A DNA stretch of 64,000 nucleotides from Escherichia phage vB_EcoM_Skers. Below, in pieces: positions 24,521 through 31,305 of this stretch. The notes under the pieces were generated by a model. It was not told the DNA's origin. It made no database searches and saw only the letters and a program-made list of their open reading frames with translations. The stretch lies in sequence record MW748999.1. One strand, given 5' to 3'. Position 1 is the stretch's first letter; each line of letters opens with the position of its first letter. Both the position numbers and the translations under genes were made by a program.

Positions 24521-25878
24521 CCCTTCTTAAGTTCTTTAAGATCTTTCTTATATTCCTTCATTGCGGTCGTCTTTGTCCAATACTCATATTCACTATGATG
24601 TTTATCGGCATCTTTGACCAGTCGATCATACTCTTCTTGAGTAACGCTATACAATGGCATAGAAACGAGCTTATCGGCATATGGGCGAAGTTTTTCATGT
24701 TCATTGATGGATTGCATTACCTCGGCCTTTTTCTTGCCCTGTAGCTCGATTTCGCCCTTAATTACGCGGTCGATAAATTCGGCTTTAGCCATTGCATAAT
24801 TGTATGCTTCCAGCGTTTCCGCTTGCATCAATTCAATGCGTTTATCGACATAGCCTAATCGGATTTCGACGAATCGACGGATCAGATCGCTCGCTTTCTC
24901 GAATACTTCTACTAAACCACGTTCGTTAACTACTACGATATTCTGGGCTACTAACTGCGTTAGTTTAAAATCCTTCATGATTTGCTCATGTCGAGCGGAT
25001 TCATCTTCGCTTTTGAAATAATCGCGTTTCAGTGTTACCTCAAATCTGAATCCGTCCTTAGAGCAACGGTCATTATACGATACAATCAGATCTTTTTCTT
25101 CCAGTGCATCCAGTACCGCTACATATTCTTCACGGTCGAACTTATAAGGAACTTCTGATATTGTCAGTTTAGTCTTGCCGTTTAGTTCATATGTACCCTC
25201 AAGAATCACACCATCGCGATCATCTCGCGGGATAACTTTACCCGTGAATTTCGGGAATTGAACACTAGGTTCTTTATCCAGTTTTCCGGCAAGTGCTAGC
25301 TCTGTGCATTCAATAAGGCTTTCCAATGAATGCGGTAAAATGTCAGTTTTATACCCTGTAGCAATACCACTAATACCATTAGCCAATACCATTGGCACAA
25401 CTGGCAAGTAGAACGCTGGCGGGATGTGTTCCAGATCTTCGTGCTTAGGTGCGCAATTCATATCTTTATAGATTTTAAAGAAGTTTTCATGCACACGAGC
25501 AAAGATATAACGTGCCGCACCTGCTTTCTGGACTAAACGCGATCCGAAGTTACCTTGACCGTCAAGCAGTGGAGTATTATTGCTCCATGTATTCGCCATA
25601 AGTGATCCGGCTTCTACGGCATTAGTTTCCCCGTGGTGATAACCCAACTCAGCAACACCAGATCCAATATCTGCCATCTTACGGAATTTCTTACGGTCGC
25701 CTTTACTCTTTTGAAGTGCGCACTCCATAACAAAGCGTTGTACTGGTTTAAGCCCATCTACCAATTGAGGAATCCCGCGTTCCTCGGCAGAATAGATCGC
25801 ATATTCCTTAGCTTCATTATGTACAATGCTTTCAAGGCTGCGGTAAGTAACTGATTTATTCATCTTCACCTCATACAC
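24517..25878 (-). CDS. 52: DNA topoisomerase II medium subunit gp52 (GyrA-like)
   Basis: GyrA-type motifs LVDGLKPVQRF, DGQGNFGS, AARYIFARV; strong match to T4 gp52 by recall. Confidence 0.9.
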   Translation of the reverse strand: MYEVKMNKSVTYRSLESIVHNEAKEYAIYSAEERGIPQLVDGLKPVQRFVMECALQKSKGDRKKFRKMADIGSGVAELGYHHGETNAVEAGSLMANTWSNNTPLLDGQGNFGSRLVQKAGAARYIFARVHENFFKIYKDMNCAPKHEDLEHIPPAFYLPVVPMVLANGISGIATGYKTDILPHSLESLIECTELALAGKLDKEPSVQFPKFTGKVIPRDDRDGVILEGTYELNGKTKLTISEVPYKFDREEYVAVLDALEEKDLIVSYNDRCSKDGFRFEVTLKRDYFKSEDESARHEQIMKDFKLTQLVAQNIVVVNERGLVEVFEKASDLIRRFVEIRLGYVDKRIELMQAETLEAYNYAMAKAEFIDRVIKGEIELQGKKKAEVMQSINEHEKLRPYADKLVSMPLYSVTQEEYDRLVKDADKHHSEYEYWTKTTAMKEYKKDLKELKKG

Positions 25879-26233
25879 GCTTACAAATCACATTCTTTAC
25901 TTTATCAGATTTATCCGCCCAATCCAATAGCCATTTTAACGGAAGGATTGAAACAATAAACGGGGCAGCAATCAAAGCAAACATGATACACCGGATAATC
26001 AGAAAAACGCAAGTAACAAAACTAGCGATAGTGATCCCGACAAAACAAAATACCATAGAAAACAGAGTAATGATATAGAAAGGCCAGAATACCCACTCCC
26101 GCATCTTAACGCCTTTGTATTCCCTGAATTGCTTAAAATCTACAAACAATTCTCGGATAGACGCGTACAGGACCGAAAAATCATCTTTCATTGCTCTGAA
26201 TGAGCAATCTTCTATTTTAGAATGATCTAGCAT
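25871..26233 (-). CDS. hypothetical integral membrane protein
   Basis: Two long hydrophobic segments (FYIITLFSMVFCFVGITIASFV and LIIRCIMFALIAAPFIVSILPL). Confidence 0.5.
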   Translation of the reverse strand: MLDHSKIEDCSFRAMKDDFSVLYASIRELFVDFKQFREYKGVKMREWVFWPFYIITLFSMVFCFVGITIASFVTCVFLIIRCIMFALIAAPFIVSILPLKWLLDWADKSDKVKNVICKRV

Positions 26234-26235
26234 TA

Positions 26236-26529
26236 TTAACCGCCTTTAACCATTGATACCGGAATTGTTTTCTGATTTGTGTATAAGTGGCCTACTTCAA
26301 ATTTTTCCTGAATCACCACAACGTTACAATATCCACTGTCTTTAAGTTTTCTGATAATGTCTCGCTTTTGTTCGTCGGTGATAGGATTGACTGTTCTCAC
26401 CAATTCATCGCAAATAATAGCACCATCTTTACAATTACCAGTAACTTTCATGCTACGACCGTGAACAACAACCACATCACCGTAAATCACATTTTTGTCT
26501 TCGTATTTGGTAATAATCGTGACCGTCAT
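26236..26529 (-). CDS. hypothetical protein (97 aa)
   Basis: ORF track; SD AGAGGGA; 5' UTR hairpin GGCCGC-TTTGC-GCGGCC upstream. Confidence 0.5.
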   Translation of the reverse strand: MTVTIITKYEDKNVIYGDVVVVHGRSMKVTGNCKDGAIICDELVRTVNPITDEQKRDIIRKLKDSGYCNVVVIQEKFEVGHLYTNQKTIPVSMVKGG

Positions 26530-26574
26530 AATGTATTCCCTCTAAGAAAGGCCGCGCAAAGCGGCCTATGTTGA

Positions 26575-26892
26575 TTATTGTTCTACAGTATAACCGTTGT
26601 TTTCAAGCCATGCAATAACAATCTTTTCACCAATTTCATCGAGCATTTCATCAGCGCCATATTCTTTAATGAAAGTCGATGGATCATTATTGCTTACTAC
26701 GTGCTGGATCACAACATGTTCAGGGATTGCATCTAGCAGTTCGCTATGATCATACTCATTAACGATATCTTCAACGGTAACATTATTAGCCAGATCCACA
26801 TCGTCTAAAGTCACCGTAACGCGTCGAGATGGATATGCTACCTGTTCTACTTCAACATGTGCACTTTCGCAAGTAACCTTCATATCAATCAT
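26575..26892 (-). CDS. hypothetical acidic protein (105 aa)
   Basis: ORF track. Confidence 0.5.
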   Translation of the reverse strand: MIDMKVTCESAHVEVEQVAYPSRRVTVTLDDVDLANNVTVEDIVNEYDHSELLDAIPEHVVIQHVVSNNDPSTFIKEYGADEMLDEIGEKIVIAWLENNGYTVEQ

Positions 26893-26906: not shown

Positions 26907-27899
26907 TTAGTAATGGCTAAAACCTTCGGTTACATCTTCAACCACATAGTAACGATGACAGCGCATTTTGGCATTCGCATAATCTTTCGGGATACTTACA
27001 ACGTGACGCGGATCAACTTTGCATTTAATGATTCGGCCTCGCCCACCGCCATAGTGCGGAATATAGTGTTTCGCTGCAACGTGGAGGCCATTAGAGCAAG
27101 TACGATCATCATCTGGGTCCACGTCTTTACGCTTCATTTTAACCGTTCGCCCTGGGCTATTATCAAACGTATGCGTAAAGAAATCTTTATAATCAACATC
27201 AACACGTTTCCATGCATAGAAACAACCGTCTTCCCCGATCTCAATGTCGTTGTGCTCTAAGAAGTCAAACAGACGATCTACGGCCTTACGGCTAGGGTTT
27301 TTCTTGCACTTCTCAAAGAAGTTCAGATAGTGCGTATATGGCTTATTCTCTTTAATAGACTCCACAACTCGACGAGTCAGATTATTATCAAGAACAATAT
27401 TATGATAATACACAATACCATTTTCGATACGGAAAGCGCCGTGATAATATACTTCAACCGCTTTCTTAATGTCAATCAGCGTAATTGCTTTAATGAAATC
27501 ATTCTGCTTAACTGCTTCCAGTGCTTCATTAAAGTTAACATGTGATGGATCAGCAGTATAAACAATGTCACCACATGTAATAGTAATAAACTTAGTTGAG
27601 GCTATGGCTACGATTTTTGAGGAAGTAGTCACGGGCTTTTTTGCGCGTTCACCGCCTTTTCCTTTACTGGTTTTACGGCGTGCTTTACGTTTTTCTAGTG
27701 CCTTGCGACCTTCCGCTACTGCGTCTTTCTGAATCAGTAATACACGGGAGGCAGTACGACGAGATACCCCAAATGCTGCCGCAAGTGCTTCGCGGGTAGT
27801 AAACTTACCTTCGCCCCACTGTTTAGCCAGTTTGATTTGTTTTTCAGAATCCAGGCATTGAACGTTACGGTCAGAGACGGTGATTTTTGCTTTAGTCAT
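26907..27899 (-). CDS. rIIB: rIIB protein
   Basis: Matches T4 rIIB by recall (SRKAVDRLFDFLEHNDIEIGEDGCFYAWK, FDNSPGRTVKM, HPRDVVSIP.DYNDAKMR); start set at second ATG (MTKAK) with SD AGAGGA, track start 27908. Confidence 0.85.
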   Translation of the reverse strand: MTKAKITVSDRNVQCLDSEKQIKLAKQWGEGKFTTREALAAAFGVSRRTASRVLLIQKDAVAEGRKALEKRKARRKTSKGKGGERAKKPVTTSSKIVAIASTKFITITCGDIVYTADPSHVNFNEALEAVKQNDFIKAITLIDIKKAVEVYYHGAFRIENGIVYYHNIVLDNNLTRRVVESIKENKPYTHYLNFFEKCKKNPSRKAVDRLFDFLEHNDIEIGEDGCFYAWKRVDVDYKDFFTHTFDNSPGRTVKMKRKDVDPDDDRTCSNGLHVAAKHYIPHYGGGRGRIIKCKVDPRHVVSIPKDYANAKMRCHRYYVVEDVTEGFSHY

Positions 27900-27961
27900 A
27901 GTATTCATTCCTCTATTAGTTGGGCGACTATCGCCGCCCGATTCACATCATTATACCAGAA

Positions 27962-28093
27962 TTATTTTGCTTCGACAACCTTGCGGATTGTGCGGTCTGA
28001 TACATTATAGATTCGTGCCAGTTCGCCTTTAGTCAAGCCGCGAGCGTATTGTTTACGGATGGTTTCTTTCTGGATAGCGGTCAGTTTAGTCAT
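27962..28093 (-). CDS. small HTH protein (43 aa) between rIIA and rIIB, paralogous to the rIIB N-terminal region
   Basis: MTKLTAIQKETIRKQYARGLTKGELARIYNVSDRTIRKVVEAK; strong SD GAGGTGA right after the rIIA stop; not in ORF track (<60 aa). Confidence 0.5.
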   Translation of the reverse strand: MTKLTAIQKETIRKQYARGLTKGELARIYNVSDRTIRKVVEAK

Positions 28094-28104
28094 AATATCA
28101 CCTC

Positions 28105-30213
28105 TTAAAATTTAACATTCTTAACCAGTTTCATAAAGTCTTGTGCGCGTTTGTCGTTATGCAGAATACGATACCAGTTATCTACAATATCATACAGTAA
28201 CGGGCTATTCTCTTTAAACTTCGCACAAACTGCTTTAATTCGTTCGTTTGCTGCCGTGAATTTTTCATCACAAATCTTTTTAGTTTCTTCGTCCATAATC
28301 CAACGAGTATGAAGGAGTAACTTGGAAACCTCTTTATTATAATGACGACCGTACAGTCTGTCAATAAATTCTGGAACACAGCGTTCTAGTTCATCGTCAT
28401 GAAACAACATAGTGATCACACCCAGATATTCGCCATACCCCAGATGATTGGTCTTAACCTTCTTAGCCAGACCAGCCAGCTTACCGCAAACAAATTCTAG
28501 CGCACATTCCAATTGTTCGTCAACGAGATATTTTTGTGTCTCGTTTCGAGTAATAATATACTTTGTTACCCCGAAGTAGTCAAGCGCCGTGTGTAATGTA
28601 TTTTCACTATGGATCGATTTACGACTACGGCTTTCGAATGCATCACCTACGCGGAACATGTGCAAGCCTGATAACTCGCGAATCTCTGCCGCTTTCATGT
28701 GATGGCTGGTTTTATGCCAATTGTCACCAATCTTTTCCATAATATACACGTTAGGCAGCTTGGGAGTAGCTTCACGTTGTGTACGCTCGGTCTTTTCCGG
28801 TTTAACTGCTTTAGCACGCAGATCATCGGCCTCAGACACCTTAATCACGGTCATTTCAGAATCATCATAATACTGTTTGATGTACTCGAAAGTCTCCATA
28901 TGTTTTTCGTTGCGCTGACGGAACACAAGTACCTTTTTATTGATGCCGTATTCCTGGACCATACCGTTAAGAGTCAGTGCACGCAGTTTCGGTTTATCGG
29001 TATCATCAATAAGACACGTAATATCTTCTTTATGCATCCATACAAAATGCGTAATGTTGTATTGACTGCTAACGAAAGCAGGGCGCAATTTGCTGATCGT
29101 GTGTCGATGATGATACAGAGTATACACTTGACCTTCTACGTCATTAGGCGAATCTTTACCCGCATTCACAAACTTATTATAGATTGCTACCGGATCGTCC
29201 CATTGTCCGATCTTACCCATCTTGCTAATAATATTGCGTTGAGTCGATGAATACTCGCTCATAAATTGCGCAAGTTTACGCTCTGTTTTAATGTTGGCGA
29301 TCTTTTCTTTAACCTTTTCCAACATCATTTCATTGATTTCTGCAATGCGTTTTTCGATGTTCGCTTTAGTCTCAATTGACAAGTGAACTTCTTCACGCGA
29401 TGGCATCAGGTCCAGATCACCCAACTCAAAATTAATGTAAATGGTCTGGTGCTGGCGGTTTACAGCTTCTAACCATGTTCCGCGAACATATTCATACGGG
29501 ATCGGATACTGGATCTTACCCATGATTGCATATACTACATAGGAATCGTTATCACGCCCATTACAAACATAATAATTATCAAAGCTAGGGAAATAATTAA
29601 TTTCGATTGCATTGATATTAGGTTTGTGTTCCCCAAAATGACGAAGTACAAATTGTGCTTCTCGATGCCATGTTTGAATGTCTTTTTCTTTCACCGGAAT
29701 AGTGATTTTCAGACCATTGTCTTCATAGGTCGGTTCGTCGAAAATCTGCACCATTTTCGGCATAGAGTTTTGCACAAATGCAGTAAAGCCATAAGCGCGA
29801 CCATTGTAGTAGTTTACGATTGTAAAGGTGTCGGTATAGCTATAAGCAGACTTCGCACCCAAACCAAAAGACCCGATATAGTCATTAGTCTGGTCTTTTG
29901 TTGATTCAAAGTAAACCGTAAACAGTTGTTCTAATTCTTTCTTAGACGGAATACCAGTACCATAATCACGCACAGAAAAATACGGTTCGATTGCAGTCGG
30001 TAAATGAATATCAAACGGACGATCTAAGGTTCCGGCTTCTTTGTGAGTGTCGGTAGCATTGCACGAATACTCACGGACGCAAGCGCGTTCACAATATTGA
30101 TAAGTGTTCTTAGAAAGCACCATAAAAGCCTTGCTACTTGCTTTCAGTGAAAAATCAACCGCACCGCTCAAGTCACTGCCAAATACTTCTTCATTATCAA
30201 TATGCATTTTCAT
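28105..30213 (-). CDS. rIIA: rIIA protein (GHKL-type ATPase domain)
   Basis: 702 aa (T4 725 aa); ATPase-like glycine motif FGLGAKSAY; directly upstream of rIIB as in T4. Confidence 0.8.
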   Translation of the reverse strand: MKMHIDNEEVFGSDLSGAVDFSLKASSKAFMVLSKNTYQYCERACVREYSCNATDTHKEAGTLDRPFDIHLPTAIEPYFSVRDYGTGIPSKKELEQLFTVYFESTKDQTNDYIGSFGLGAKSAYSYTDTFTIVNYYNGRAYGFTAFVQNSMPKMVQIFDEPTYEDNGLKITIPVKEKDIQTWHREAQFVLRHFGEHKPNINAIEINYFPSFDNYYVCNGRDNDSYVVYAIMGKIQYPIPYEYVRGTWLEAVNRQHQTIYINFELGDLDLMPSREEVHLSIETKANIEKRIAEINEMMLEKVKEKIANIKTERKLAQFMSEYSSTQRNIISKMGKIGQWDDPVAIYNKFVNAGKDSPNDVEGQVYTLYHHRHTISKLRPAFVSSQYNITHFVWMHKEDITCLIDDTDKPKLRALTLNGMVQEYGINKKVLVFRQRNEKHMETFEYIKQYYDDSEMTVIKVSEADDLRAKAVKPEKTERTQREATPKLPNVYIMEKIGDNWHKTSHHMKAAEIRELSGLHMFRVGDAFESRSRKSIHSENTLHTALDYFGVTKYIITRNETQKYLVDEQLECALEFVCGKLAGLAKKVKTNHLGYGEYLGVITMLFHDDELERCVPEFIDRLYGRHYNKEVSKLLLHTRWIMDEETKKICDEKFTAANERIKAVCAKFKENSPLLYDIVDNWYRILHNDKRAQDFMKLVKNVKF

Positions 30214-30227
30214 AATATAATCCTCAC

Positions 30228-30485
30228 TTAATTAAAATCTTCTTTGTCCATCTCTGCGTAAATTACATCCCACGCCCATAAATCAATAAACGCATTATAT
30301 GTCACGGTGCAATCGTTGTCAATCACTTCTTTCGCATATTTCTTGATGTTTTCGTAGGAAACTTGCGGATCAATTTTGTGTTTACGAAGATGCGCATATT
30401 CATACCTCAAACACTCCATAAACAGGTCCATCGATTTCTTTTCTCGATGACACTTGGCGATCATAAAATCAAAACTTCGACTCAT
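30228..30485 (-). CDS. hypothetical protein (85 aa)
   Basis: ORF track. Confidence 0.5.
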   Translation of the reverse strand: MSRSFDFMIAKCHREKKSMDLFMECLRYEYAHLRKHKIDPQVSYENIKKYAKEVIDNDCTVTYNAFIDLWAWDVIYAEMDKEDFN

Positions 30486-31243: not shown

Positions 31244-31277
31244 CGTTAAATCCTCATAAAAGAAAAGGGAGACTCCC

Positions 31278-31305
31278 ATTATAGAGAATCTCCCTTGTAT
31301 GTCAA
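31278..31305 (-). promoter_or_regulatory. PeSL-like early promoter immediately downstream of gene 39
   Basis: Minus strand TTGACATACAAGGGAGATTCTCTATAAT with GGGAGA...TCTCCC palindrome. Confidence 0.55.

Follow-up and report, generated by a model that had tools for sequence, protein, structure and literature searches.

We describe here ORF43, a 43-codon open reading frame (ORF) located between rIIA and rIIB in Escherichia phage vB_EcoM_Skers (sequence record MW748999.1; the whole 64,000-nt stretch that was analyzed is called the window below). ORF43 is a real, conserved gene under selection. Our favored reading, to which we give a probability of roughly 0.6, is that Krischvirus-like phages carry it as a true early gene whose product is a free-standing basic helix-turn-helix (HTH) protein, paralogous to the N-terminal HTH of RIIB and contacting DNA in trans. 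The gene occupies 27962..28093 (minus strand, stop codon included), belongs to the RB49ORF272c family (PHROG 15481), and is translated as MTKLTAIQKETIRKQYARGLTKGELARIYNVSDRTIRKVVEAK, followed by TAA. The 43-amino-acid (aa) product has a calculated mass of 5.0 kDa, an isoelectric point (pI) of 10.4, and a net charge of +6.5; the pI and charge give indirect support for DNA binding.

A small gene at the rIIA-rIIB junction

Window positions 26.9 to 30.2 kb make up the rII locus of an RB49-like phage (a Krischvirus); the region is 97 to 98.5% identical to 58 Krischvirus phage records, and every gene in it lies on the minus strand. rIIA (28105..30213, minus strand; 702 aa; PHROG 612, E value of 2e-188) ends with a TAA codon at 28105-28107, and an 11-nt gap separates this stop from the ORF43 ATG (28093). 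The gap contains the Shine-Dalgarno (SD) sequence GAGGTGA (28098..28104, minus strand), which abuts the rIIA stop and is followed by TATT (4 nt) and then the ATG. An earlier note on this DNA, made without database searches, had picked out the 43-codon frame, the strong SD directly after the rIIA stop, and both neighbors (rIIB matches PHROG 609 with an E value of 2e-106), all of which were found as described; the strand, which it had not given, is minus.

The same note had called the gene unannotated, which is wrong because GenBank has listed it from the RB49 record onward, as RB49ORF272c, and it is also present as PHROG 15481 and as a UniRef "HTH psq-type domain-containing protein." Public entries are RB49ORF272c/AAQ15476.1 (original RB49 record), to which ORF43 is identical in sequence, BN201_0276 (GEC-3S), and WWT36914.1 (UPWr_E1), and the exact sequence is found on 515 contigs. 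Besides the UniRef name, the sequence carries the names "hypothetical protein" and, in one source, an automatic sigma-24-family name. The PHROG 15481 profile (function unknown) matches ORF43 with an E value of 3e-34 and 117.7 bits, with residues 1-43 aligned to positions 1-43.

ORF43 is intact in all 58 Krischvirus records (at least 99% aa identity in 53 and 95 to 99% in 5) and in five divergent metagenomic lineages (L008, L009/L010, L015, L016/L017, and L018/L019). Divergent 43-aa homologues with 86, 86, 77, and 69% identity were returned by a database search, and a 45-aa homologue (L018/L019) was found through its rIIB neighbor. In every lineage found, the gene is placed between rIIA and rIIB, and the SD is kept in divergent lineages, as TGAGGTGAA in L009, L015, L016, and L017 and as GAGAGGTAA in L018. 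Conservation of the frame and its SD in relatives, which had been proposed as a check on the gene, was thus observed. By the Nei-Gojobori method, the proportion of synonymous differences (pS) is 0.5 to 0.8, near saturation, and that of nonsynonymous differences (pN) is 0.08 to 0.23. The corresponding rate ratio (dN/dS) is 0.04 for L016, 0.11 for L009, and 0.30 for L008, with a pN/pS of 0.15 for L018, and 28 positions are invariant across lineages. Overall aa identity to the window is 71 to 86% for ORF43 versus 39 to 44% for rIIA, 54 to 65% for rIIB, and 67 to 73% for gp52; in L018, the values are 84, 44, 65, and 73%, respectively, and in L008, they are 71, 39, 54, and 67%. By this comparison of sequences, ORF43 is the best-conserved gene of the rII locus.

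No ORF is present at the rIIA-rIIB junction of the next lineage out, L020 (rIIB 53% identical), which makes the gene specific to a Krischvirus-like clade. The L020 junction (L020:3918-4000; Logan SRR24744578_11021) is an 83-nt gap with a hairpin, GATGGGAG-TTCG-CTCCCATC, and then a T4-early-like promoter, GTTTACA...TATAAT. Here too, then, a terminator/promoter cassette has settled at the junction, in this case with no HTH ORF left behind. One candidate for a truncated or diverged ORF43, the 32-aa P0039 (L024:2030-2128; ENA ERZ16268060 scaffold_22125), was rejected as an artifact of an error-laden scaffold end. It matches the window in its first part, mismatches pile up toward the scaffold end, and the sequence has become a protein-database cluster representative.

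Kinship with the rIIB N-terminal module

When 50,697 phage records were searched by tblastn, the strongest matches of ORF43 other than to itself were in rIIB of Jiaodavirus (52.5% identity; E values, 0.02 to 0.06), followed by rIIB of Marfavirus, Karamvirus CC31, Dhakavirus Bp7, and Serratia X20. All of these matches lie at the extreme N terminus of rIIB, in genes that start 0 to 14 nt past the rIIA stop. Smith-Waterman alignments of ORF43 with rIIB proteins, calibrated with 2,000 shuffles, always fell on the N-terminal HTH, with z-scores of 12.8 for Jiaodavirus, 12.1 for CC31, 9.9 for Marfavirus, 9.5 for Bp7, 7.1 for L008, and 5.2 for T4; none of the 2,000 shuffles reached the score obtained with the Jiaodavirus, CC31, Marfavirus, Bp7, or T4 protein. 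With the rIIB of the same phage, the z-score was 2.9 (a score reached by 36 of 2,000 shuffles) and BLASTP gave no meaningful match, so that this relationship is visible only at the profile level or by shuffle-calibrated alignment. At the family level, profiles were decisive: comparison of the ORF43 family by hhalign gave a probability of 99.1% (E value of 1e-18; 41 columns) against 111 rIIB N-terminal modules from outside Krischvirus and 97.7% against the modules of Krischvirus-clade rIIB. Alignment with rIIB N termini, which the earlier note had suggested, thus bears out the resemblance that it reported for T4 and extends it to other T4-like phages; for the rIIB of this phage, which it had named alongside T4, the likeness is marginal pairwise and holds at the profile level only.

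The reciprocal comparison used a hidden Markov model (HMM) built solely from the 111 N-terminal modules of other phages' rIIB (rIIB-N HMM). ORF43 scored 46.2 bits with this model (45 to 54 bits across the family), about 20 bits over its best Pfam family; of the 45 best outside look-alikes (median, 30.5 bits), 44 scored lower. The HTH modules attached to Krischvirus-type rIIB proteins scored 37.8 (this phage), 32.7, and 31.6 bits, all below ORF43.

ORF43 shares with the T4-type RIIB N-terminal HTH (the first ~45 residues) a tri-helical HTH of ~40 residues, the signature L-x-x-x-Q/E-K-x-x-I ... G-x-x-T/S-K-x-E-L-A-x-x-Y-x-V-S-x-x-T-I-R-R/K-V, and a genomic slot directly past the rIIA stop. ORF43 starts 11 nt after the end of rIIA, exactly as far as rIIB does in T4, and the corresponding rIIB gaps in Jiaodavirus, Marfavirus, and Dhakavirus are 0 to 14 nt. 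Unlike the RIIB HTH, ORF43 is a separate polypeptide that is not fused to the rIIB core (PF26926): it ends in TAA and is separated from rIIB by a 53-nt spacer, an in-frame TGA, and a difference in reading frame. Judged from these sequence comparisons, ORF43 is homologous to the rIIB N-terminal HTHs and sits in the ancestral rIIB start slot. Descent from an rIIB module is likely, being the most parsimonious account of this position and of the reciprocal profile fit.

The structural evidence agrees with the HTH signature that had been noticed in the 43-aa protein. The Pfam HTH family CENP-B_N (PF04218) matches ORF43 with 26.0 bits, above its gathering cutoff of 21.2, and many other Pfam HTH families fall just under their cutoffs (Sigma70_r4, 21.1 versus 24.1). 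The AlphaFold2 (AF2) model has a predicted local distance difference test (pLDDT) score of 90.7 and contains three helices (residues 6-18, 22-28, and 33-41) in HTH geometry. Its best superpositions are with the HTH of IS21 IstA (template modeling [TM] score, 0.81; 1.1 Å) and the DNA-binding domain of Hin (TM score, 0.83/0.76; 1.5 Å; 0.83 with 1ijw_C), and CENP-B (1hlv_A) superposes with a TM score of 0.78 and a root mean square deviation (rmsd) of 1.6 Å; further matches are of the resolvase and NarL/LuxR types. Given how short the domain is, the Foldseek E values do not reach significance, and a PDB sequence search with ORF43 gave no significant match (best E value, 0.2). The model shows a tri-helical HTH fold like those of Hin, IS21 IstA, and CENP-B. 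In fold and size, the protein resembles such autonomous HTHs (Hin HTH_7, IS21 IstA N-terminal, and CENP-B_N/psq), with TM scores of 0.78 to 0.83 and rmsd values of 1.1 to 1.6 Å over 39 to 43 residues. Those domains sit within recombinases, transposases, and centromere proteins, whereas ORF43 lacks both a catalytic partner domain and an N-terminal minor-groove arm as long as that of Hin, and its identity to them is 20 to 28%.

rIIB itself (26907..27899, minus strand; 330 aa from the second ATG) consists of an N-terminal HTH, a disordered linker (residues 78-95), and a conserved core (residues 96-330). It is collinear with T4 rIIB, including the HTH (tblastn covers residues 12-327), and ORF43 is therefore an extra, ancient module and not the product of a simple split. 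The earlier note had described ORF43 as a detached copy of the rIIB N-terminal module; the kinship stands, and a recent copy does not, since the rIIB of this phage keeps its own HTH. The attached module (27732..27863, minus strand; residues 13-56) has diverged, with the recognition helix SRRTASRVL versus the canonical S-x-D-T-I-R-R-V. ORF43 can be seen as an ancient paralogue of the RIIB N-terminal HTH and is possibly the original module. A six-frame scan of the window with the HMM found these two rII-linked HTH modules and no other copy.

In the AF2 model of rIIB, the HTH helices span residues 18-29, 36-42, and 47-56 (pLDDT, 90 to 96) and are followed by a long helix, with the linker (pLDDT, about 43) ahead of the core. 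The core (window 26907-27614, minus strand) is modeled with good confidence, and a Foldseek search with the full rIIB model gave matches only via the N-terminal HTH, leaving the core without a solved relative. Two in-frame ATGs lie 9 nt apart at the rIIB start (27897-27908, minus strand), and mechanical calling from 27908 gives a 333-aa ORF. The rIIB SD core, GAGGA (27909..27913, minus strand), abuts the first ATG, so its spacing makes the second ATG (27899, as in RB49 and L018) the more plausible start. At their starts, ORF43 and rIIB share, perhaps by chance, the 10 nt TATGACTAAA, which include Met-Thr-Lys. Between rIIB and gene 52, the window holds three small ORFs (25871-26892, minus strand; 105, 97, and 120 aa) that are hypothetical in RB49 (ORF270c-268c); the 120-aa product resembles a membrane protein. 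In T4, this interval holds denB, ndd, and other genes instead.

A survey of 120 diverse rIIB proteins found exactly one N-terminal HTH module in 114. The only multimodule protein is the 459-aa rIIB of L008 (P0158; L008:4685-6064; ENA ERZ27260015 k141_60519), which has three tandem HTHs (residues 3-44, 58-99, and 144-185) in addition to the free 43-aa ORF upstream. In the other five proteins, the model detected no HTH: P0197, P0240, and P0241 have divergent HTH-like segments, P0202 is truncated by a contig end, and P0196 (L026:2607-3608) has an N terminus that is not an HTH and begins with MLHKFATRKIARTEAKRLGGKV. Module number at the rIIB N-terminal end is therefore plastic in evolution.

Promoters and the stem-loop cassette

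The spacer between ORF43 and rIIB presents, in order, the ORF43 stop, a sigma70-type promoter, a GC-rich stem-loop, an SD, and the rIIB start, which is the arrangement of a promoter-early stem-loop (PeSL; Arbiol et al. 2010, PMC2839356; Comeau et al. 2014, PMC4122927). The promoter (27950..27978, minus strand; TTGTCG-17-TG-TATAAT) has its -35 element, TTGTCG (27973-27978), within the last codons of ORF43 and a TG-extended -10 element, TATAAT (27950-27955), and matches the consensus at 10 of 12 positions; it is also annotated in GEC-3S. The stem-loop, GGGCGGC-GATA-GTCGCCC (27922..27939, minus strand), has a 7-bp GC stem without a U-tract, and the 53-nt spacer folds at -17.9 kcal/mol. In all six lineages, the ORF43-rIIB separation is 53 to 75 nt and contains a promoter and a stable hairpin (spacer folds, -14 to -18 kcal/mol), with unrelated stem sequences; the stem encloses the -10 element in L009, L015, and L016/17 and lies downstream of it in the window.

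Both arrangements are known as PeSL subclasses (stem-loop downstream of the -10 element or overlapping it), and in RB49 and phi1, the stem-loops attenuate upstream transcription and the promoters are strong; promoter/attenuator activity, recombination, or mini-circle formation was shown experimentally for other PeSLs (PMC2839356). By analogy, the stem-loop described here probably attenuates read-through from rIIA and ORF43. The cassette differs from published PeSLs in two respects. Those flank variable ORFans, in contrast to the highly conserved ORF43, and their promoters have the full consensus, compared with 10/12 plus a TG extension here. The main text of the PeSL papers (PMC2839356 and PMC4122927) mentions none of rIIA, rIIB, and ORF272c.

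A perfect sigma70-consensus promoter, TTGACA-17-TATAAT (28336..28364, minus strand), lies in the 3'-terminal part of rIIA, with the ORF43 ATG 271 nt farther downstream, and is a candidate for a dedicated ORF43 promoter. Counterparts are found at -223 to -261 in L018 (12/12), L016/17 (11/12), and L009 (10/12). T4 presumably has promoters for rIIB at the equivalent place. Two further promoters were observed upstream on the minus strand: a second 12/12 sigma70-consensus promoter (30294-30322), ~80 nt upstream of rIIA and within the preceding small gene, and a canonical PeSL (31265-31305; TTGACA-16-TATAAT) with its -10 element in the loop of a 13-bp stem and a following T-run, AAGGGAGATTCTCTATAATGGGAGTCTCCCTT TTCTTTT. 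Fusion of ORF43 to rIIB by read-through, frameshift, or a gene-60-like bypass was considered and ruled out from the sequence, because the two are in different frames, the rIIB start is preceded by an in-frame TGA, and rIIB is equipped with an SD and a promoter of its own.

Under the favored reading, ORF43 would be cotranscribed early with rIIA; the rIIA promoter and, probably, the consensus promoter near the end of rIIA would drive it, and its own SD would serve for translation. Read-through would be dampened by the hairpin, and transcription of rIIB would be reinitiated from the PeSL promoter. The peptide would fold alone and contact DNA via helix 3 (S32-E41, invariant in all lineages) and would thereby perform in trans a DNA-contact role that stays tethered to RIIB in other T4-like phages. 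In evolutionary terms, the HTH may have been duplicated at the rIIB 5' end and then separated by a stop codon and the PeSL cassette, after which the free copy would have stayed canonical and the attached copy diverged.

Weighing the readings

Several points weigh against this reading. Pairwise similarity of ORF43 to the rIIB of its own phage is marginal, as described above. The phage with the non-HTH rIIB P0196 has no ORF, and thus no free HTH gene, between rIIA and rIIB, so that the HTH is replaceable in some lineages. No intermediate genome with a fused HTH1-HTH2 rIIB lacking the PeSL was found. The literature searched yielded no expression, DNA-binding, or phenotype data on this gene and no paper dealing specifically with ORF272c or the rIIB HTH. 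The N-terminal segment of T4 rIIB is reportedly dispensable on K(lambda), in work attributed to Crick and coworkers in 1961 and to Champe and Benzer in 1962; if so, a role of ORF43 in the classical rII phenotype is doubtful. Finally, the HTH class is generic: in single-module scores on the ORF43 profile, outside look-alikes reach 39 to 49 bits versus at most 39 bits for rIIB modules (best of 111, 39.1), and common descent with rIIB is therefore unproven.

A more far-reaching form of the favored reading holds that ORF43 is the original rIIB N-terminal HTH, freed by a mobile PeSL cassette after duplication, in a gene fission brought about by a regulatory element, and acting in trans with RIIA and RIIB on DNA. 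We regard this form as speculative and somewhat unlikely. If it were true, a long-ignored HTH that was reportedly dispensable in the Crick-Brenner frameshift work would, as the best-conserved part of the locus, be a functionally central, separable DNA-targeting unit of rII, and RB49 would be a natural "split" system for finding what DNA the rII module touches. The situation recalls split genes of T4-type phages, in which a module is joined in some phages and a separate gene in others and a mobile or regulatory element is inserted at the break, as the PeSL is at the ORF43-rIIB boundary. The large subunit of T4 topoisomerase, for example, is split into genes 39 and 60 and is encoded by a single gene in relatives. 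Here, rIIB keeps a duplicate of the detached module, so duplication and separation would be involved, unlike the simple fission of genes 39 and 60, and in contrast to splits of that type, no homing endonuclease is involved at ORF43.

An independent small early transcription factor, binding for instance at or near PeSL promoters including that of rIIB and setting the rIIA:rIIB ratio, would make the link to rII positional only. The Hin/LuxR/sigma-r4-type fold of ORF43 would suit such a role, as would its proximity to an inverted repeat and to a promoter whose -35 element overlaps its last codons and the sigma-24-family name in one source; a published interpretation likewise makes rIIB a specific transcription factor, and rIIA a GHKL ATPase (PMC7824862). 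Against this stand the stems, which differ wholly between lineages (GGGCGGC.., GCGTCCC.., ACGTCCTGA.., and GCGCC..) while the recognition helix of ORF43 is invariant, making a conserved adjacent operator unlikely. The promoter-plus-hairpin motif of the spacer occurs once within the window, which provides no evidence of a regulon-like repeated site. Sigma70_r4 remains below its Pfam cutoff, and ORF43 is strictly syntenic with rIIA and rIIB in every lineage found. We consider this explanation unlikely.

It is also conceivable that ORF43 is the domesticated DNA-binding tail of an HNH or GIY-YIG homing endonuclease once inserted between rIIA and rIIB and that its likeness to rIIB reflects a shared HTH class. 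T4-like genomes are rich in homing endonucleases inserted between conserved genes. A search of 1.84e9 representative proteins with the ORF43 profile gave 304 matches with E values of ≤1e-3. The top matches were proteins of 4 to 7 tandem HTHs, the C-terminal HTHs of HNH_3/NUMOD4 and GIY-YIG endonucleases, and mini-HTH proteins, and only 1 of the 150 matches listed carried an rIIB core. These endonuclease HTHs scored 48.8, 46.8, and 42.2 bits on the ORF43 profile versus 31.6 for the best sampled rIIB (Jiaodavirus), and Smith-Waterman scores of ORF43 were 87 to 114 against look-alike and endonuclease modules versus 47 to 85 against rIIB modules. Many of the proteins seen in this search (P0006-P0023) consist of 220 to 720 aa with 4 to 7 tandem HTHs of ~40 residues (LT-x-x-Q-x-x-I...ELA-x-x-Y-x-VS-x-x-TI), some of them joined to GIY-YIG or HNH nuclease domains.

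Such endonuclease and tandem modules belong to the same HTH class as ORF43, with single-module matches of 39 to 49 bits, but they are the extreme tail of 1.84e9 proteins and thus subject to selection bias, and they fit the rIIB-N HMM worse than ORF43 does (45 to 54 bits across the ORF43 family, above 44 of 45 look-alikes). Nor does the locus contain anything left of a nuclease: ORF43 is flanked by no more than 11 and 53 nt, the six-frame scan showed the two rII-linked modules alone, and Pfam and PHROG scans of ORF43 returned no nuclease family. The ORF43 start codon falls exactly in the ancestral rIIB start slot, the look-alike mini-HTHs (P0077/L023 and L014) occur outside rII contexts, and strong purifying selection is atypical for endonuclease debris. 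On balance, an endonuclease origin seems quite improbable.

A purely cis-acting role for ORF43 (as an upstream ORF or through translational coupling to rIIB) or decay into a relic without a functional product, which its shortness, its position between two cofunctional genes, and its start just past the rIIA stop might suggest, is highly implausible and excluded by the selection data (28 invariant positions, pN/pS of 0.04 to 0.3, and the best conservation in the locus), to which are added the confident predicted fold, the artifactual nature of the only apparently disrupted copy (P0039/L024), and the placement of rIIB 53 to 75 nt away, past a hairpin and promoter, in a different frame and behind an in-frame TGA, which leaves neither coupling nor read-through fusion possible.

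The gain offered by ORF43 is incremental because databases already contain the gene and there is nothing unusual about its fold; as a member of a catalogued family, it is an evolutionary curiosity rather than a discovery, and we make only a modest claim for it. Its setting gives it interest. In diverse phages, RIIA and RIIB act against RexAB (PMC11879866); RIIB by itself is toxic in E. coli and sets off a bacterial gasdermin defense (PMC10312443); and an r1589-like rIIA-rIIB fusion has been noted (PMC8594841). The rII locus is historically iconic, and the rIIB N-terminal HTH is near universal. The locus described here is an example of a PeSL cassette at a domain boundary. That a canonical-looking HTH is present as a separate gene under stronger constraint than rIIA and rIIB suggests that the module has a role in its own right, one that can be provided in trans. 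Krischvirus-like phages would be a natural system for its study, with a synthesizable 43-residue peptide and a clean knockout target.

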